From positions 23,886 to 87,885 of the forward strand of contig DASXTW010000087.1 of NCBI GenBank assembly GCA_036505215.1: DNA of 64,000 nt. Reading direction: 5' to 3'. The position numbers and the translations under genes were made by a program. Origin of the DNA: Actinomycetota bacterium. GTDB lineage: Bacteria; Actinomycetota; UBA4738. This document shows, piece by piece, positions 693 to 34,712 of this stretch; the first letter of the stretch is position 1, and the number at the start of each line of letters is the position of its first letter. The notes below the pieces were generated by a model. That model was not told where the DNA came from. It saw only the letters and a program-made list of their open reading frames with translations, and did no database searches.

Positions 693-738
693 CCGGCCGC
701 GGTCACCGCTGATAGCCGGCCGCGGTCACCGCTGATAG
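693..738. repeat. Exact 23-bp tandem duplication (ccggccgcggtcaccgctgatag x2) spanning the stop codon of the epimerase gene
   Basis: Identical copies at 693-715 and 716-738, read directly from the sequence. Confidence 0.8.
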
Positions 739-1637
739 ACGGAGCGCATCCAGTCCACGGTCTTCGGGATTCCCACCTCGAGTGGCACGGTTGGGTCGTG
801 GTCAAGCTCGGCCCGGGCCCTCGAGCAGTCGACCACCTTGTCCCTGGTGGTCATGGGCTCGGACTCCAGGTAGCTCACGTGGGAGTCGTCCAGTGCGAGG
901 TACTCCAGGATCATGTCGTTCACCGACTTCATGTCGTGGAGCTCCTCGCCCCCCACGTTGTAGACCCGACCCGGCACGAAGCGGTCCGCGATGTTGGCCA
1001 GCGTCCGGCACGTGTCGCTCACGTACGTGGAGGTCCGTCGGTGGTCCAGGTAGATGTCCAGCGGTTGGCGGAACATGGCCCTGTAGATGAACTTGCAGAT
1101 CGCACTGCGATACTCGCTGAAGTACTCACCGGGACCGTAGGTGTTGAACAGCCGGACCCGAACGATCTGGGCGTTCCATTCCTCGGCCGCGTTGAGCGCC
1201 TGCATCTCGTTCACCCACTTGGACATGGCGTAGTCGTTGAGCTGGCGCATCGGGACGCGATCCAGCACGTCCTCGGCCATCACTCCGTCGTAGTCGCCGT
1301 ACACCTCGGAAGAGCTGAACAGGACGGAGCGGAATCCATGTCGCCGTTGCAGGGTCAGGAGGTTCTTGGTACCGACGGCGTTGGCCTTCCACATGGTCTC
1401 GTAGAAGTCCTCGCCGTTTCGCCGGCCGAACTCCGCGGCCAGGTGGTAGACGAGCTCGGGCCGGCACCGTTCGATGACGCCCTCGAACTGGCGGTACTCC
1501 CCGACGTCTCCCCGAAGGAACGTTCCCTCGTGGAAATGGCCGCGATCCATCCGCCATACCTCGTGGCCGCGCGCTTCCAGCTCCTCGACGAGATGCGTTC
1601 CCACCGCACCGCGCGACCCGGTTACCAAGATCCTCAC
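726..1637 (-). CDS. NAD-dependent epimerase/dehydratase (extended SDR family), nucleotide-sugar modifying
   Basis: N-terminal Rossmann motif MRILVTGSRGAVGTHL; YxxxK-containing SDR core; location in a glycosyltransferase cluster. Confidence 0.8.
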   Translation of the reverse strand: MRILVTGSRGAVGTHLVEELEARGHEVWRMDRGHFHEGTFLRGDVGEYRQFEGVIERCRPELVYHLAAEFGRRNGEDFYETMWKANAVGTKNLLTLQRRHGFRSVLFSSSEVYGDYDGVMAEDVLDRVPMRQLNDYAMSKWVNEMQALNAAEEWNAQIVRVRLFNTYGPGEYFSEYRSAICKFIYRAMFRQPLDIYLDHRRTSTYVSDTCRTLANIADRFVPGRVYNVGGEELHDMKSVNDMILEYLALDDSHVSYLESEPMTTRDKVVDCSRARAELDHDPTVPLEVGIPKTVDWMRSVYQR

Positions 1638-1757
1638 CGGTCACCCTCCTCCTTACGGTCTTCAGGCTGGGGAATCGACCGTTCGGCCGCGCGCTTTAGC
1701 GGATTCTAGGACCGGGTTCGTCCGGATCCGGGAGGTGCGTCGATATAGTGGCGCAGG

Positions 1758-11730: not shown

Positions 11731-11811
11731 GTTCGGAACAGGTCAAGACTTAAAGGGACCGAGCGCAATCCAACCAGCCGAATGAGGAGCAAGCCCGTGG
11801 TGGGTCTGGAG

Positions 11812-12164
11812 TGGAGGTGGCGGGAATCGAACCCGCGTCCCCGGGCGACCGGCTGGGGCTTCTACGGGCGTAGCCGCCGGCCAGATCTCACCTCGAGCCC
11901 TCCGGCGGCGGAGGGGCTCTCGGCCAGCCCGGCTGAGATGTCCGGCGGCGGCCACCAGGCCGAACTACCACCGTGAGCCTGCTCACGACGCCCGACCCGC
12001 GGGCGCAGGCGTCCCGCGGCGGACGGCTACCTAAGGTTTGTTAGGCAGCGAGCGCCATCTGAGAGTTGGCACTTGTTGTTGTCCCGGCTTTTAACGAGGC
12101 ATCCGGGGACCTCGGCCCGCTTCCCCCAGGCAGTAACCACCCAGGTCGAAGCCTGTTCACCCCC
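11812..12164 (-). ncRNA. ssrA: tmRNA (transfer-messenger RNA, ssrA); predicted tag peptide ...ANSQMALAA
   Basis: The 5' end GGGGGUGAACAGGCUUCGACC pairs with the 3' end …GGGUUCGAUUCCCGCCACCUCCA (tRNA-Ala-like acceptor and T-arm). Internal ORF GCC AAC UCU CAG AUG GCG CUC GCU GCC UAA. smpB lies immediately upstream on the same strand. Confidence 0.9.
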
Positions 12165-12238
12165 AATATTCAGTTCTCAGCACCTACGAGTATACGAGGG
12201 GGTCCAAGGGGCCAGCAGGGCGCCGATACAGCTCGGAG

Positions 12239-17153: not shown

Positions 17154-19850
17154 TCAGGCCGTCATCCCGTGGCACTTCTTGTACTTCTTGCCCGAACCGC
17201 ACGGGCAGGGGGCGTTGCGAGGAATCTTGTCCCCGACGGACTGGGCGCTGCCAACTGCGGGGCCCGCCGCGCCCTCGTCACCGTGAGAGAGCTGGACCCG
17301 TTGCGGCCGGGGTCGGGCCGGCTCATCCTGACGCACCAGCTCGACGCGGTAGATGTAGCGAACGAACTCCTCCTGGATGGCCGCCTTCATCTCCTGGAAC
17401 ATGTCGAAGGCCTCGCGCTGATATTCCACCAGGGGATCGCGCTGGCCGTAGGCGCGGAGCCCGATGCCCTCCTGCAGGTAGTCCATCTCGTACAGGTGCT
17501 CGCGCCACTTGTTGTCGATGATCGAGAGCAGGACCATCCGCTCCAGCTCCCGGAGGATCGGGTCGGCCGCGCTCTCGTCGGTTCCGAGGTCGCGCTCCTT
17601 CTGTTCGTACGCCTCGTAGGCGTCCTGAAGAGCGAGCTCCAGCACCTCCTCGGCGCTGTCGATCTCCTCCAGCGCGGCCTTGGTCAGCCGGGTCGGGTAC
17701 ACCGACGACAGCGCGGCCACCAGGCCCTCCAGGTCCCACTCCTCGGGGTAGACGTCCTTCGAGACGTACTGTCCGACCGTCTGTTCGATCACCTCGGACA
17801 CGTACTCCAGCGCCTCTTCCTTGAGGTCTCGTCCCTCCAGGATCTTCCGGCGTTCCCCGTAGATCACCTTGCGCTGGGTGTTCATGACCTCGTCGTACTT
17901 CAGAACGTTCTTGCGGATCTCGAAGTTCTGCTCCTCGACGTTCTTCTGCGCGGTCTCGATGGCCCGAGTCACCAACTTGGCCTGGATGGGCTCGTCCTCC
18001 GGCCAGTTGAATCGATCCATGATCTTTCCGATCCGGTCGGAGGCGAACAGACGCATCAGGTCGTCCCCCAACGACAGGTAGAAGCGTGACTCACCGGGGT
18101 CCCCCTGGCGGCCGGACCGGCCTCGGAGCTGGTTGTCGATCCGCCGCGACTCGTGTCGCTCGGTGCCCAGGACGTACAGGCCACCCAGCTCGACCACCTC
18201 GTCGTGCTCGGCGTCGGTCTGCTTCTTGAACTTCTCGTAGATCGGCCGGTACTCGGCCTCGTAGTCCTCGCGCTCCTCAGGATCCATCTCGAACAGCAGG
18301 TAGCGATCGTTGTCGAAGCCGCGGGCGGCCATCTCCTGGCGGGCCAGGTACTCGGGGTTGCCGCCGAGCAGGATGTCCACGCCTCGGCCGGCCATGTTCG
18401 TGGCCACGGTGACCGCGCCCCGGCGCCCGGCCTGGGCCACGATCATCGCCTCCTTCTCGTGCTGCTTGGCGTTCAGGACGTGGTGGGGAATCCCTCGTCG
18501 GTTCAAGTACCCCGACAGCCGCTCGGACTTCTCGATGGAGACCGTGCCCACAAGGATCGGCTGCCCCTGCTCGTTGCGCTCCACGATGTCCTCGGTCACG
18601 GCCCGCCACTTGGCGTCCTCGTTCTTGTAGATCAGGTCCTGCTGGTCGGTCCGGATCATGGGCCGGTTCGTGGGGACGTCGTTGACGGAGAGCTTGTAGA
18701 CCTCCTCGAACTCACGGGCCTGGGTCCTGGCGGTGCCGGTCATGCCGGCCAGCTTCTCGTACATCCGAAAGTAGTTCTGGATGGTGATGGTGGCCAGGGT
18801 CTGGTTCTCTTCCTTGACCCTGACGCTCTCCTTCGCCTCGATGGCTTGGTGCAGACCCTCCGAGTACCGACGCCCTTCCAGGACCCGCCCGGTGAACTCG
18901 TCGACGATCTTCACCTCGCCCTGGGTCACGATGTAGTCGACGTCCCGCTTGTACAGCTCCTTGGCCCGGATCGCGTTGTACAGGTAGTGGACGAGCGGGG
19001 TGTTCACGTGATCGAAGAGGTTCTCGATCCCGAGTTCCTTCTCGACCTTCTCCACCCCGGGTTCCAGGACCGAGACGGTGCGCTTCTGCTCATCGACCTC
19101 GTAGTCGACGTCACGCCGGAGACGCGGTCCCATCCGGGCGAAGGTCTGATACCACTTCGCCGAGTCGGCCACCATGCCGCTGATGATCAGGGGGGTCCTG
19201 GCCTCATCGATGAGGATGGAGTCCACCTCGTCCACGATGGCGAAGTGATGCCCCCGCTGGACCATATCCGCGGTCTGCATGGCCATGTTGTCCCTGAGGT
19301 AGTCGAACCCGAACTCACTGTTGGTGCCGTACGTGATGTCGGCGGCGTAGGCCGGGCGACGCTGCTCCGGAGACATCTGGGCCTGGATCAGGCCGACAGA
19401 GATCCCCAGCGCCCGGTAGATCGGCCCCATCCACTCCGAGTCGCGCTTGGCCAGATAGTCGTTGACCGTGACCAGGTGGACCCCGTTTCCCCCCAGGGCG
19501 TTCAGGTATGTGGGCAGGGTCGAGACCAGCGTCTTTCCTTCACCGGTCTTCATCTCGGCGATCCTGCCCTCGTGGAGGACGACACCGCCCATGAGCTGGA
19601 CGTCGAAATGACGCTGCCCGATCGTTCGCTTGGCCGCCTCCCGGACCAGGGCGAAGGCCTCGGGGATCAGGTCGTCAGGCTGCTCGCCCTCGCCCAGCCG
19701 CCGCTTGAACTCGTCGGTCTTCCCGATGATCTCGGCGTCGGACAGCTCCTCGATCTCATGCTCGAAGGAGTTGATCAGCCGAACGTATTCCTCCAGGCGC
19801 TTCCGCCTGCGCCCTTCGCCTAATTGTCCGAGCTTCTCCAGACCAACCAA
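17154..19850 (-). CDS. secA: Preprotein translocase ATPase SecA
   Basis: 898 aa with DEAD-like motor motifs and the C-terminal zinc-binding tail [14 protein letters not shown]. Confidence 0.95.
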
Positions 19851-19954
19851 TGAAAACTCCTAAGGGGTTGTTCAGGGGACCGACTCCCGATTATAGGGTC
19901 GGCCTCTGAGAGAAACGCCTGAGCACCGTCGAACCTTCCCGAAGGGTCCATGTC

Positions 19955-20063
19955 GGGGGGCTACCGCTCGGCTTCGCCTCGCTACTTGAGCCCCCCGAAC
20001 CCCCGGGCGGGGGGCTACCGCTCGGCTTCGCCTCGCTACCTTGAGCTCCCGAACCCCCCGGCG
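19955..20063. repeat. Two tandem copies of a ~54-bp GC-rich hairpin repeat (ggggggctaccgctcggcttcgcctcgctac-ttgagc-cccccg…)
   Basis: Copies at 19955-20008 and 20009-20063 differ by only a few nucleotides. Core is related to the repeats at 29831-29885 and 41876-41942. Confidence 0.7.
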
Positions 20064-20067
20064 GGGC

Positions 20068-20790
20068 TTACTTGATCTCGAGGAGCTTCTCGCGGACGGC
20101 GTACACCACCGCCTCCATCCGGGAATGGAGGTGCAGCTTCTCCAAGATGTTGCGGATGTGGTTTTTCACCGTGTTCTCGGAGATGAACAACTGCTTGGCG
20201 ATGTCCCGATTGTTCAGGCCCTGGGCCACCAGCTTGAGCACTTCCATCTCCCGCTCGGTGAGCCGGGGGGCAGGGAGCTGTTGGCGCTCATCGGCCCGCC
20301 TGGACATGGCAGCGAACTCGGCGAGCAGCTTGGCCGCCATCGAGGGAGAGATCCTGGACTGGCCCGCCCACACCGACCTGACCGCGCCGGCCACCTCGTC
20401 GATCGAGATCTCCTTGAGGAGGTAGCCGGCGGCGCCTGCCTTGATGGCGTCGTACAGATCGGCCTCCTCGTCGGAGATCGTGAGCATCAGGATCTTCACG
20501 TGGGGCAGGAGCTCCTTGATCTGCTGGGTTGCCTCGATCCCGGAGCGATGGGGCATCCGAACGTCCATCAGGATCACGTCCGGCATGGTCTCCTGGGCCT
20601 TCTGGACCGCCTCGTTCCCGTCCCCGGCCTCGCCGACCACCTCGATGTCCTTCTCCTGCTTGAGGACCATCTGGAGGCCCCGCCGGAAGAGGGCATGGTC
20701 GTCGACGATCAAGACCTTGAGCCTCTCGACGTCGGCTTTGGTAGCCGATTCCTTGGCCACGGACCCCCCGGGTCCTAGTGGGGACGGCAT
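20068..20790 (-). CDS. Two-component response regulator, NarL/LuxR family (REC + HTH)
   Basis: KVLIVDDHALFRRGL…DVILMDVRMP (receiver domain) and C-terminal LTEREMEVLKLVAQGLNNRDIAKQLFISENTVKNHIRNI (LuxR-type helix-turn-helix). Confidence 0.85.
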   Translation of the reverse strand: MPSPLGPGGSVAKESATKADVERLKVLIVDDHALFRRGLQMVLKQEKDIEVVGEAGDGNEAVQKAQETMPDVILMDVRMPHRSGIEATQQIKELLPHVKILMLTISDEEADLYDAIKAGAAGYLLKEISIDEVAGAVRSVWAGQSRISPSMAAKLLAEFAAMSRRADERQQLPAPRLTEREMEVLKLVAQGLNNRDIAKQLFISENTVKNHIRNILEKLHLHSRMEAVVYAVREKLLEIK

Positions 20791-20832
20791 GATCCGGATT
20801 GCGTGCCCCATGAGAACTAGTCTTGGGAGATT

Positions 20833-21156: not shown

Positions 21157-21401
21157 TCGTCATCCCTCCCTTTCCGGGGGTCTACGTTCGGCTTCGGGCG
21201 GAGGTGCGAAACGGCTCCCACCTGGCTGACCTGGTCTTTGGCCCCACACTCGCCTGCGGAGGGGTTCGCCGCCGAAGAGGCGGTTTAGCGCCTTCTCCCG
21301 AGCGGCAAGGCCGCGCGGGGCAGGACTTACATCTAAGCCGCACCATGCTCAGCGACCAACGGTCGCCTTACGTGGGTCGTTTCGCCTGCGACTAGCATCG
21401 A

Positions 21402-22175
21402 CTACCGGGAGGACCTCCCCCGGGCAACCACAGACCCAGGCGGGAACCTAGCCGGATTATAACAACGGCCCGGGACGCCCCCTCCCAGAGACCTCGCGGC
21501 CGTGAGGACGCCGACTTCGGCTGCGCCCGCCCTGCGCAGCACGGTGGCGCACTCGGCCGCCGTTGCTCCACTCGTGAGCACGTCGTCCACGAGCACGACT
21601 CGGACGGATTGCACCGGCCCGGCTGCGGCGAAGGCGCCTTGCAGAGCCCGGCGTCGTTCCGGCCCGGCCCTGCGGGCCTGGGGTGCCGTCTCAACAGCCC
21701 GGCGGAGGAGCGCTCGCACCGGCCACCCGGCCAGCGCCCCGACCGCGAGAGCCAGCACTTCGGCCTGGTCGTACCCGCGCTCCCGCCTGCGTCGCGCTCC
21801 AAGCGGCACCCACGTCACGACCGATGGCTCATCCTGCCCACCGGCTCCGCCGACCGGCGGCGCGCGGGCCAGGGCTTCCACCATCGAAGGTGCGAACGCC
21901 TGGGCCACGTGCGAAAGACCCGAGAACTTGAGGCGCAAGAGCGCAGACCGGACCGGCCCCTCGTAGAGGAACGCCGAGCGAGACCAGCCGATGACCGAAG
22001 GGGGGCAATCGCCGCACATCCCGATCCAGTCCTCGAGCGGCCGTCCGCATCGCCGGCAACCGGGAGGGGCCAGCAGGGCAACGCGGGCCGCGCAGCCCGG
22101 GCAGAAGGGCCAGGAGCGGTGGCCGCACCCGACGCATCGTTTGGGGAAAAGGACATCCAGCAGCCGGTCCAGCAT
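21402..22175 (-). CDS. ComF family phosphoribosyltransferase-domain protein
   Basis: N-terminal zinc-finger CVGCG…CPGC…CRRCG…CGDC and a C-terminal PRTase motif VVLVDDVLTSGAT. Confidence 0.75.
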   Translation of the reverse strand: MLDRLLDVLFPKRCVGCGHRSWPFCPGCAARVALLAPPGCRRCGRPLEDWIGMCGDCPPSVIGWSRSAFLYEGPVRSALLRLKFSGLSHVAQAFAPSMVEALARAPPVGGAGGQDEPSVVTWVPLGARRRRERGYDQAEVLALAVGALAGWPVRALLRRAVETAPQARRAGPERRRALQGAFAAAGPVQSVRVVLVDDVLTSGATAAECATVLRRAGAAEVGVLTAARSLGGGVPGRCYNPARFPPGSVVARGRSSR

Positions 22176-29665: not shown

Positions 29666-29830
29666 CGCACCTGGATGCATCGGCGTAACCACGCGCCGAG
29701 CGCATAGTCCCCCGGCCCGATTTTTTGACCTCTCCACATGGACTAAGGGGCATCCCCCAGTCGGGGGATGCCCCTCTCCGTCTCCTCGTCTCCTCGGGAG
29801 CCGCCCGCCTGCGGCGGACCGCTCCGCGAG

Positions 29831-29885
29831 CCAGGGGGTCCGCAACTGCCTCGCTTCGCTCGTTGCTGCTACCCCCTGGACCCCC
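29831..29885. repeat. GC-rich hairpin repeat, family member (ccagggggt…cgcttcgctcg…accccctgg)
   Basis: Perfect 9-bp terminal inverted repeat. Its reverse complement aligns to the 41876-41942 element (gggggtccaggggg…cgagcgaagcgag…). Confidence 0.6.
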
Positions 29886-31282
29886 TACGTCATCGGCAAG
29901 CCGAGGGTTGCAGCGTATCCCGTTCGATCCGGGGAATAGGACACGGCCGCGGCCACGATCGTTCCACCCCGGGCACTCACCAGGGCGGAAACAGGGCGCC
30001 CCCCCTGGGACGGAAGCGTGATCCTGATCGTCCTTCCCGGCGGGATCGTCCGCTGGCGGATCGATGCCGGTGGAGGCCGGTCGCTCCCGATGAGCCGGAA
30101 GGACACCTCCACCCGCCCCCGGCCGGGATTCTGTAAAAGAAGGAACGAGCGGCCGCCCGACATAGGAAGAGCCGGCATGACCAGCCAACGTCCGGCCGTG
30201 ATCGTGGATCCGTTGAGCATGGCCGAGTCTCCGCCAGGCCCGGTGAGCCTCAGCCCCGCGATCATGGGGCGACCGTTCGAGGCGGCCACGAGCAGCCCGG
30301 CATCTTTCACCCGTTCCGTCTGGAAGGTCTTCACCTCGGCGGGTCCGACCGAGAAGCCCTCCGGACCCGACACCAACCGTTGAACCTTAGGCCCTTCGGC
30401 CACGGCCGAGAGGTCGGCCCTGGAGGCCCCATCGTTCAGAACCACAAGGTGCCGAGCTCCCACATCGGCGCCGGCCGGGATCAGCCACCGGGTTCCGGCA
30501 CCGGGGACGCCCGCCTCGATCCTGATCCCTCCAATCGACAGCGCGAGGCCTCCGGCCACCACCCGGCCCATCCGCTGGATCACCCGCGCCGTGAGCGATT
30601 CCTCGCCTGGACCCTGAAGGAGGAAATCGTTGACCGGGATGCCGACCGAGTGTCGTGGAGCCAGCACGAACGGGCTCAAGGGGCCCGCCGCCACCACTCG
30701 CTTCTCCGTTCGCAGGACCACGTCGAACTCGGCGGGCTCGTCGAAAGGATTCATGACCACCAGATACGAGGTCTGGCCGGCGCCGGTGGGGACATCCATG
30801 ACGAACCAGTTTCGATGGGCTGCCTGCTCGCATCGCTCGGCGGCCAGTCCGCCGGGGGCAACCGTGGCCACGATGGCAGCAGCGCCCACCACTCCGCCGA
30901 AGTACTCCACCTGCGTGGCGTCGGCCGGGTCGTCCGCGGAGACCTCGCGGTAGACCTGCCTGAGAGCGCCGACGGCGAACGTGCTCACCGACCGCGTCCC
31001 ATCCTTGCCCAGCTGGGTCAAGCGGACCCGGACTCGACGCTGCCCTGGATTCGTCACCACCACCCATCCCTGCCACCCGCTGTGCCCCCCGTGCGGGCAG
31101 AACAGAGCGCCGCTCGGGCCGGCTGAGGGAGCGCCCGCAGCCGCGCCCCTGGGCCCAACCGCGCGGTCCAGGACGAGGCCCGACCCGGTCAGGAAGGCCA
31201 CCGCGACCAGCAGAGCGACGGCTCGAACCCGGATGCCCGGCAATCGGTGGGCCTCACCCTCCACTGGTTCCATCTCAGCCAT
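29885..31282 (-). CDS. Membrane-anchored extracytoplasmic hypothetical protein (single N-terminal TM, 465 aa)
   Basis: N-terminal hydrophobic helix AVALLVAVAFLTGSGLVL followed by a large Gly/Val/Ala-rich domain. Start overlaps the stop of the upstream GT2 membrane protein. Confidence 0.55.
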   Translation of the reverse strand: MAEMEPVEGEAHRLPGIRVRAVALLVAVAFLTGSGLVLDRAVGPRGAAAGAPSAGPSGALFCPHGGHSGWQGWVVVTNPGQRRVRVRLTQLGKDGTRSVSTFAVGALRQVYREVSADDPADATQVEYFGGVVGAAAIVATVAPGGLAAERCEQAAHRNWFVMDVPTGAGQTSYLVVMNPFDEPAEFDVVLRTEKRVVAAGPLSPFVLAPRHSVGIPVNDFLLQGPGEESLTARVIQRMGRVVAGGLALSIGGIRIEAGVPGAGTRWLIPAGADVGARHLVVLNDGASRADLSAVAEGPKVQRLVSGPEGFSVGPAEVKTFQTERVKDAGLLVAASNGRPMIAGLRLTGPGGDSAMLNGSTITAGRWLVMPALPMSGGRSFLLLQNPGRGRVEVSFRLIGSDRPPPASIRQRTIPPGRTIRITLPSQGGRPVSALVSARGGTIVAAAVSYSPDRTGYAATLGLPMT

Positions 31283-34504: not shown

Positions 34505-34540
34505 CTGAAGGGGGGCTACGGACCCCCCTTCAGCAGCCCG
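34505..34540 (-). terminator. Perfect stem-loop (gctgaagggggg-ctacgga-ccccccttcagc) just downstream of the Lys-rich small ORF
   Basis: 12-bp inverted repeat read from the sequence. Sits between the small ORF stop (34554) and the GT2 start (34388). Could be a terminator or attenuator. Confidence 0.4.
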
Positions 34541-34553
34541 CTCTATCAACGAG

Positions 34554-34712
34554 CTATCTCTTCCTCTTGGCCGTGGACTTCTTCGTCGACTTCTTCTTCG
34601 CCGAAGACTTCCTCTTGGCCGTGGACTTCTTCGTCGACTTCTTCGCCGACTTCTTGGCGGTCGACTTCTTGGCGGACTTCTTGGCGGTCGACTTCTTCCT
34701 GGCAGCTGGCAT
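34554..34712 (-). CDS. Unannotated 52-aa Lys/Ala/Ser/Thr tandem-repeat protein (MPAARKKSTAKKSAKKSTAKKSAKKSTKKSTAKRKSSAKKKSTKKSTAKRKR); histone-H1/HU-tail-like, extremely basic
   Basis: ATG is preceded by GGAGGTGA (4-nt spacer). Lies 25 nt downstream of the whiB stop on the same strand. Uniform AAG/AAGAAG codon repeats. Below the ORF-track cutoff. Confidence 0.55.
   Translation of the reverse strand: MPAARKKSTAKKSAKKSTAKKSAKKSTKKSTAKRKSSAKKKSTKKSTAKRKR

Follow-up and report, generated by a model that had tools for sequence, protein, structure and literature searches.

The described systems closest to the sequences reported here are the REP elements and, in mycobacteria, the TRIT motif. REP termini can provide stop codons, and some REPs lie inside ORFs (PMC3733652). 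In E. coli, REPs located at most 15 nt from a stop codon stall ribosomes (PMC12306157). TRIT has been described as a conserved palindrome present 147 times in M. tuberculosis, where it is distributed very narrowly around stop codons (PMC3152330). Mycobacterial RNA polymerase requires a U tract for termination (PMC3993855), Term-seq placed TRITs at only 2-4% of the mapped 3' ends (bioRxiv 10.1101/2022.06.01.494293), and the role of TRIT as a terminator has been questioned. With regard to single strands, GCGAAGC is an extraordinarily stable DNA mini-hairpin of the G4, ssiA, and N4 initiation sites, and its RNA version is less stable (PMC13037366).

Here we describe a family of tagged, GC-rich palindromes, beginning with a tandem pair located between a response regulator gene and secA of an Actinomycetota bacterium. 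We consider this pair to be two copies of a small, non-autonomous, proliferating palindromic element of REP/MITE-like character, with TRIT, tagged REPs, and RPEs as its analogues, and assign to this reading a probability of roughly 60%.

A tandem pair between a response regulator gene and secA

The window, that is, the whole 64-kb stretch of DNA analysed here (67% GC), contains on its minus strand a gene for a NarL/LuxR-type response regulator (20068-20811; Response_reg and GerE by Pfam) and, downstream of it, secA (17154-19850; SecA by Pfam). An earlier note on this DNA had placed two near-identical units of about 54 bp between the regulator stop and the secA start, and both the units and their neighbours were borne out. 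TRF reported a tandem repeat at 19954-20066 with a period of 54, 2.1 copies, 93% matches, and a score of 196, and the 19-mer CGCTCGGCTTCGCCTCGCT has exactly two exact occurrences in the window (19965 and 20019), the chance expectation being 0.09 with up to three mismatches. Read on the minus strand, unit 1 (20009-20059) starts 8 nt past the TAA of the regulator gene (20068-20070) and consists of the tag GGGGGG, TTC, a stretch beginning GGGAGCT, the tip AGCGAGGCGAAGCCGAGCGG, and then TAGCCCCCC. A GCCC linker (20005-20008) connects it to unit 2 (19955-20004), which has the tag GGGGG, TTC, a 10-bp clamp TCGGGGGGCT/AGCCCCCCGA, and the same tip as unit 1. Both units are assigned to the subtype that we call type III. 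The regulator TAA and the tandem pair are followed about 100 nt later by a -10-like CTATAAT (the reverse complement of 19890-19896), which lies between the repeats and secA, and then by the secA start. A TAnnnT element about 40-50 nt upstream of secA is conserved in relatives (L235-L253), implying a separate secA promoter downstream of the repeats.

A search of the window against Rfam (4227 models, gathering threshold) matched only raiA and tmRNA, and nothing was found on the tandem pair at E<=10. The raiA motif (RF03072, 145 bits; 21217-21444, minus strand) is located upstream of secA, with a ComF-like gene (21402-22175) on one side and the response regulator gene on the other. The tmRNA gene (11809-12164, minus strand) encodes the tag peptide ANSQMALAA and is adjoined by a weak tag-like sequence, GGGGGTCCAAGGGG (12198-12210, plus strand). 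No description of the tagged hairpin family was found in Rfam or in the searchable literature, and full-text searches with the tip and tag strings gave nothing relevant.

Related copies in the window

In total, five copies of the family are present in the window, one of them decayed; the four intact ones represent three subtypes. The pattern search aligned the four copies in one register: 41876-41942 (plus strand), 29831-29885 (minus strand), and the two tandem units (minus strand). The related copies suspected at the first two places are real, aligning with the pair over tag, clamp, and tip. The core of the pair had been described as the reverse complement of the motif in both; this is true of the copy at 41876, but the copy at 29831 has the same orientation as the pair.

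The type I copy (hairpin 1, 41876-41942, plus strand) is composed of a G6 tag, T, CCAGGGGGG-CAGCAGCC, the tip AGCGAGCGAAGCGAGCGG, an ATCA bulge, GGCTGCTG, and CCCCCTGG, and starts 5 nt past the TAG (41868-41870) of a DUF3105 gene. Its second hairpin (41943-41986, plus strand; CGATGAG...CTCATCG) ends in the Shine-Dalgarno (SD)-like tail GGGAAGAGGGGG. This copy lies between convergent genes, with no same-strand gene after it, and the tail is still present; the tail therefore belongs to the element. The type II copy (hairpin 1, 29831-29887, minus strand) contains a G5 tag followed by TCCAGGGGG ... GAGCGAAGCGAG ... CCCCCTGG, and its tag is overlapped by the TAG stop (29885-29887) of a DUF5719 gene. 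The second hairpin of this copy (29768-29830, minus strand) has a GCA triloop and the purine-rich SD-like tail GAGGAGACGAGGAGACGGAGAGGGG. The decayed copy (44290-44344, minus strand; GGGGTCCAGGGCCTCAAGCAGCGAAGCG...) is type III-like and overlaps the 3' end of a WecG-family ORF (44313-45194), for which it provides the last codons and the TAG stop. The assignment of the copies to gene 3' ends was confirmed: the three intact loci start 0-8 nt past the stop codon of a same-strand upstream gene.

A separate 12-bp perfect G6/C6 hairpin at 34505-34540 (minus strand; GCTGAAGGGGGG TCCGTAG CCCCCCTTCAGC) had been linked to the pair through a common start. The link holds in that GGGGGGCTAC is found at 34510 (three matches in the window, 0.11 expected), but the hairpin has neither the tip nor the second G run, and no relative of it occurs among any of the fetched loci. 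Judged by its sequence, which has only one 10-mer in common with type III, its membership in the family is not demonstrable. The hairpin is followed by a weak T-rich tail and is the best candidate for an ordinary terminator in the region. The gene for a Lys-rich protein located 5' of it (34553-34700, minus strand) contains coding tandem repeats of 12, 18, and 27 bp (TRF, 34572-34698) and ends with TAG. A different repeat, a 23-bp tandem (2.2 copies, 96%) at 692-742, forms a strong hairpin directly after an epimerase gene (726-1640, minus strand).

Conserved anatomy and covariation

On its own strand, each copy consists of a tag (G5-6 and T) and a hairpin of 45-65 nt based on a clamp, YC(R)G5-6 ... 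C5-6(Y)GR, with a variable middle stem and the tip AGCGAG(G)CGAAGC(C)GAGCGG. In its folded form, the tip has GC pairs around tandem G.A mismatches and is closed by a C-GAA-G triloop. One base pair is gained in the tandem copies through an additional G and C in the tip, so that the type III insertion is compensatory. In types I and II, a short linker, mostly CCGA in type I, leads to a second hairpin with a C-GNA-G triloop, which is followed by the tail (T)GAGGAGG. With regard to G-quadruplexes, each unit possesses only two G runs.

Covariation was examined with an alignment of 19 type I copies (A1). In this alignment, 86% of the cells are paired and compensatory changes occur in 17 of the 37 pairs; none of 500 shuffles reached any of the measures, and no slid register approached the observed values. 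Ten of the 11 pairs of the second hairpin covary. The clamp and the tip are nearly invariant in these copies, and sequence conservation is also seen in the 3' bulges ATCA and CAKT.

RNA folding of the tandem units, which had been proposed as a check, was not significant in energy alone (z = -1.7 and +0.4), the weakness of the single-unit scores being due to the very GC-rich composition. When the stop-proximal folds of 44 genes of the window were compared, the three family loci and the 34505 hairpin were the four most stable (-35 to -38 kcal/mol versus -24 +/- 5 kcal/mol in random windows). The structure is thus supported by its recurrence, by the compensatory gain of G..C in the type III tip, and by the covariation of the sister subtype, and not by the folding energy. 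Chance similarity of ordinary GC-rich hairpins in a 67% GC genome, to which we give practically no weight, would agree with the unremarkable single-unit z-scores, but not with the exact 19-mer repeats, with a tag, clamp, tip, and bulges common to many genomes, or with covariation above all shuffled and slid controls. RNA and DNA folding of both strands was equally good and gave no discrimination, and the asymmetry between G.T and A.C, obtained from non-independent copies, did not separate selection at the RNA level from that at the DNA level.

Some tagged clamp hairpins have quite different interiors and no GCGAAGC tip (L173 3596 and L198 4633), one example lying between the genes of S8 and L6. 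The tag and the clamp are the most conserved feature of the superfamily. A TTC tip on the tag strand was seen in none of 17 additional tagged hairpins.

Distribution and probable proliferation

The genome-wide pattern search that the earlier note had called for did find further copies. A scan of species-representative genomes with the pattern of tag, GCGAAGC, and C5 gave at least 112 loci, part of which lie inside genes and are chance matches. Among the matches listed, members of the family occur in at least six phyla, namely Actinomycetota, Acidobacteriota, Myxococcota, Binatota, Chloroflexota, and Clostridia. All three subtypes of the window are found in many Actinomycetota MAGs (e.g., type I in L146, L183, and L221; type II in L199; type III in L193 and L204). 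The other carriers among the matches listed are Holophagaceae and the isolate Geothrix paludis, Anaeromyxobacter, Binatota-like MAGs, a Dehalococcoidia MAG, Clostridia/Lawsonibacter MAGs, and a 'delta proteobacterium' MAG with more than 40 loci. The matches form clear, lineage-specific subfamilies with dozens of near-identical copies per MAG. The family as a whole had been thought to be specific to the lineage of the window, a view refuted by the same architecture in MAGs and genomes of at least six phyla. The tag was found in none of the 80 closest metagenome secA loci (56-76% identity), and the element is absent from the syntenic regulator-secA spacers of L235, L238, L239, L240, and L250. 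Its absence from the 80 loci indicates that the distribution is patchy rather than bound to a lineage. A plasmid BLAST search with the type I copy gave no real match.

The delta proteobacterium MAG (G04_MAG_00019) contains an 84-bp unit in 36 near-identical aligned copies, often in tandem, which consists of a 13-bp perfect hairpin followed by a tag and clamp hairpin. The arms of the 13-bp hairpin change in step, from GGACCC/GGGTCC to GGAACC/GGTTCC. The 36 aligned copies extend from AAGGACC... to ...CGGTGCAA, and no terminal inverted repeats or target-site duplications were found at these ends. Some of the units lie in frame inside AFOR_C, YjeF_N, and Aminotran_5 (L136 2764, L149 4494, and L172), with the Pfam domains continuing across the insert, and the unit also occurs next to an MGMT domain (loci L136, L149, L172, and L141). 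Depending on the frame, the units encode ...PSGFAARVRGGPGGGEARSAEQPPG... or ...LAALPRGSAGVRGAVRREAPNSPPAQ.... In-frame insertion is known from this subfamily and not from the copies of the window; the unit lengths of both, 84 bp and 54 bp, are divisible by 3. The empty orthologous sites, the near-identical multi-copy units, and the in-frame copies in coding sequence suggest that the family proliferates.

All-against-all clustering of ORFs detected no transposase and no recurrent neighbour gene beside the 112 listed loci, the only recurrent ORFs there being those of ribosomal proteins and those of low complexity; a parent IS was likewise not found beside these loci. Pfam analysis of about 40 ORFs detected no transposase in the 64-kb window, only housekeeping genes. 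RAYT was found neither in the window nor beside the 112 listed loci. A candidate RAYT flanked by inverted copies in L149 was rejected, the intervening genes being trmB/pdxJ-like.

Position relative to stop codons

For 16 Actinomycetota copies, a same-strand ORF supported by GC3 ends 0-26 nt upstream. About 22 of the 26 resolvable copies (about 85% sense) lie on the strand of the upstream gene, counts that are noisy owing to the crude GC3-based gene calling; the positional claims made here rest on explicit stop-adjacent ORFs and Pfam-verified neighbours and not on global orientation counts. According to Pfam, Actinomycetota copies lie between the genes of EF-G and EF-Tu, S10 and L3, S17 and L14, and L5 and S14, and before that of L15, in five MAGs. 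The copies at the ribosomal-protein junctions are sense-oriented. The polarity is reversed in Holophagaceae/Geothrix and in the Binatota-like genomes, where the non-tag end is 5-13 nt from an opposite-strand stop in 14 of 21 copies. A partly conserved spacer (YTGAT...TTCC) leads from the stop to the hairpin in the Holophagaceae copies; the Actinomycetota copies have no fixed flank. In both polarities the base of the hairpin is 5-14 nt from the stop, and the clamp starts within about 6-14 nt of it. Since copies of both polarities abut stops, abutment on the stop codon is general and the polarity is lineage-specific.

The position past the stop codon had led to the proposal of an intrinsic terminator. 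In this reading, the units would be factor-independent ('I-shaped') terminators that end the regulator transcript before the secA promoter, which would suit very stable hairpins directly past stop codons, the -10-like element of secA downstream of the repeats, and the history of TRIT, which was first proposed as a terminator (PMC3152330) and at which some M. tuberculosis mRNA 3' ends are located. We nevertheless regard it as improbable. A canonical intrinsic terminator has a U-rich tract (7-9 nt) and lies at the end of a transcription unit, and the copies show neither feature. A T tract follows none of them (the post-clamp sequences include GACATGG, GCCCGGG, TGGCTCG, and TGGCGAT), and a terminator scan of the window called no copy of the family. 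Sense copies lie inside the str, S10, and spc operons and inside ORFs. These ribosomal-protein operons are co-transcribed in known bacteria, and an efficient terminator at their junctions is therefore implausible. The need of the mycobacterial polymerase for a U tract (PMC3993855) and the small overlap of TRITs with Term-seq ends (2-4%) also argue against termination.

The same positions invite the idea of a selected, cis-acting RNA module of operons, composed of the clamp hairpin, the second hairpin, and its own Shine-Dalgarno sequence, with mobility as a secondary matter. Such a module would adjust termination and ribosome stalling, the stability of mRNA segments, and independent re-initiation at the following cistron. 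The sense orientation of about 22 of the 26 resolvable Actinomycetota copies, the covariation in 10 of the 11 pairs of the second hairpin, and the recurrence at ribosomal-protein junctions in five MAGs are consistent with this idea, as are the 5-14 nt between the hairpin base and the stop in both polarities and the (T)GAGGAGG tail, which lies 5-10 nt before downstream starts and is kept even where no gene follows. It is opposed by the reversed polarity in the Holophagaceae and Binatota-like lineages, the in-frame copies within coding sequence, the empty orthologous junctions, and the near-identity of copies within a genome, and also by the GNA triloops, which stabilise DNA far more than RNA (PMC13037366). 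On balance, we think a selected RNA module rather unlikely to be the primary nature of the element.

Occurrences in viral genomes

The exact 18-mer tip of the type I copy, AGCGAGCGAAGCGAGCGG, was found in more than 120 IMG/VR contigs (28-66% GC) and in at least 10 unrelated contexts (L003-L122, e.g., L006 882 and 1181, L014 2995, and L041 6562). It mostly caps hairpins in long non-coding regions and shows no orientation bias; in many cases, a CCCC-N3-4-GGGGG hairpin comes 20-30 nt after it. The mirror-flank control, an 18-mer with the same core and the flanking bases swapped, was found in only five contigs. Rfam gave nothing on 16 of the viral motif loci, and no paper matching the viral 18-mer was found. 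A tRNA-like reading of the viral contexts was rejected, ARAGORN being negative.

The tag and clamp design itself occurs at 27 viral loci. A complete circovirus genome of 2063 nt (L323; Viral_Rep and Circo_capsid) carries at 975-1040, in the intergenic region between the 3' ends of rep and cap, a hairpin whose tip is GAA and whose ATCAGG bulge resembles that of type I. This hairpin is part of a segment of about 250 nt with a GC-rich centre and 22-nt direct repeats at both ends. Intergenic tagged clamp hairpins are also present in two CRESS-like genomes (L335 1925-1975 and L342 1290-1328) and two Microviridae genomes (L330 1095-1135 and L338 9-54). In the Microviridae and the circovirus, they lie on the coding strand, which is the virion strand in these families. 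The mirror pattern gave 18 viral loci, mostly from an unrelated GTCCCCC iteron family, and the excess is about 3-fold; because of this contamination of the control, we claim the presence of the design in viruses but not its enrichment in ssDNA viruses. The control contigs L356 and L360-L366 contain GTCCCCC(A/C)AG iteron arrays in inverted orientation around an AT-richer core, which probably represent an origin or a regulatory region of a phage and have no relation to the hairpin family.

Given the stability of the GCGAAGC hairpin in DNA, the elements could have a function at the level of single-stranded DNA or could reflect convergence on nuclease- or SSB-resistant hairpins. A tagged mini-hairpin of this kind might serve in ssi-like priming or HUH-type recognition, its position in transcripts being incidental. 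The C-GNA-G triloops of both hairpins and the occurrence of GCGAAGC in primase/ssi sites and N4 promoters (PMC13037366) point in this direction, together with the tag and clamp in the intergenic coding strand of the Microviridae and the circovirus and in the CRESS genomes, and with the lack of a TTC tip on the tag strand of the 17 additional tagged hairpins. However, the bacterial copies have no linked HUH gene (112 listed loci and the 64-kb window), the DNA and RNA folds are equally good on both strands, the viral excess over the mirror pattern is only about 3-fold, and abutment on stop codons is not a prediction of such a signal. We accordingly consider a primary role as an ssDNA signal doubtful.

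A broader and equally tentative view is that the G5-T-tagged clamp hairpin, with a GNA or GCGAGCGAAGCGAGC tip, would be one module in bacteria of at least six phyla, dsDNA phages, Microviridae, CRESS viruses, and a circovirus. Its site of action would be single-stranded nucleic acid, and the chromosomal families would be its mobilised, stop-targeted derivatives. The module might be an SSB- or nuclease-resistant signal for complementary-strand priming or for widespread structure-specific enzymes. If this were true, it would represent a previously unrecognised, near-universal class of mobile or functional hairpin rather than lineage-specific sets of REPs.

Discussion

The reading that we prefer is that of a proliferating palindromic element, two copies of which form the tandem pair upstream of secA. 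The element would be co-transcribed with the upstream gene and would fold into a very stable 3' or intercistronic stem-loop. By analogy, this stem-loop may act as a barrier to 3'->5' exonucleases and protect the upstream mRNA. The base of the hairpin is within the ribosome footprint, so that the terminating ribosome could be hindered, and the stem-loop may also damp the termination and the expression of the upstream gene, as with the stop-proximal REPs of E. coli. It would not terminate transcription efficiently. Its spread would depend on an enzyme acting in trans, for which the tagged hairpin, probably as single-stranded DNA, would be the recognition site.

Several observations go against this explanation. 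Neither a transposase nor a recurrent neighbour gene was found beside the 112 listed loci, the 64-kb window has no transposase, and terminal inverted repeats and target-site duplications were not seen. The covariation of the second hairpin, the sense bias of about 85% in Actinomycetota, and the SD-like tail suit an RNA function under selection at least as well as a purely selfish element. No known insertion rule accounts for the narrow distance from the stop codon. The same design in a vertebrate-type circovirus and in CRESS viruses is beyond what a bacterial transposase can explain.

If a proliferating element is the right reading, hundreds of genes in many soil and sediment bacteria, ribosomal-protein operons included, possess an extremely stable hairpin in the footprint of the terminating ribosome. 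For annotation, this means that terminator predictors will call the elements terminators and that the elements can add peptide insertions to proteins; for models of expression, the elements may affect the stability of mRNA segments, ribosome stalling, and the load on tmRNA. The occurrence of one tagged architecture in distant phyla and in ssDNA viruses requires that they share either a recognising enzyme or a physical function. The family also offers a handle on a long-standing question, the purpose of TRIT-like, U-less hairpins at actinobacterial gene ends.

The family can be placed among the known systems as follows. Classical MITEs have terminal inverted repeats, target-site duplications, and a related autonomous IS, and this combination was not found. 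PATEs derived from IS200/IS605 have subterminal hairpins, insert 3' of a fixed target of 4-5 nt, show a strand bias with replication, and occur in genomes with tnpA/tnpB; of the flanks seen here, the Holophagaceae copies have the conserved YTGAT...TTCC, and the Actinomycetota copies have none that is fixed. Like the RPEs of Rickettsia, palindromic repeats that lie in frame in protein genes and are tolerated as peptide insertions, the delta proteobacterium subfamily has in-frame copies within conserved domains; RPEs, however, are AT-rich, 100-150 bp long, and confined to Rickettsia, with no G-run tag and no association with stop codons. MIRUs are tandem units of 50-100 bp in the intercistronic spacers of operons, oriented with transcription. 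They are not known to be strong hairpins, however, and are defined by small ORFs that overlap the flanking stop and start, a feature unseen here. The ssDNA initiation mini-hairpins (G4 ori, ssiA, and N4 vRNAP promoters) resemble the family in the identical tip, the C-GNA-G triloops, and the intergenic regions of ssDNA viruses, but those are single functional sites of replicons and not dispersed chromosomal repeats, with no tag or clamp described. TRIT, by its published description alone, is similar as an actinobacterial palindromic hairpin of about 150 copies, centred on stop codons and devoid of a canonical U tract. The present family is likewise palindromic, multi-copy, and narrowly distributed at stops, but with a different offset: TRIT is reported to be restricted to Mycobacterium and centred at -8 in the coding sequence, whereas the family here starts at +0 to +8 and occurs in several phyla.

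With REP/BIME elements, the family has in common a short terminal tag joined to an imperfect palindrome, a high copy number, head-to-tail dimers, and a location mostly downstream of ORFs, between unidirectional or convergent genes. REPs are palindromes of 20-40 nt with a terminal GTAG/CGTC and are mobilised by RAYT Y1 transposases, in contrast to the 45-65 nt and the G5-6T tag found here. GTAG is incidental in this family, occurring at the stop codon of type II and inside the 3' arm of type III. The family further differs from REPs in its longer hairpin, its clamp of G and C runs, its conserved 3' bulges, and a module kept across phyla. Its many extragenic copies, mostly downstream of ORFs, are those expected of REPs and support the earlier proposal of a REP-like, dispersed hairpin family at gene 3' ends.
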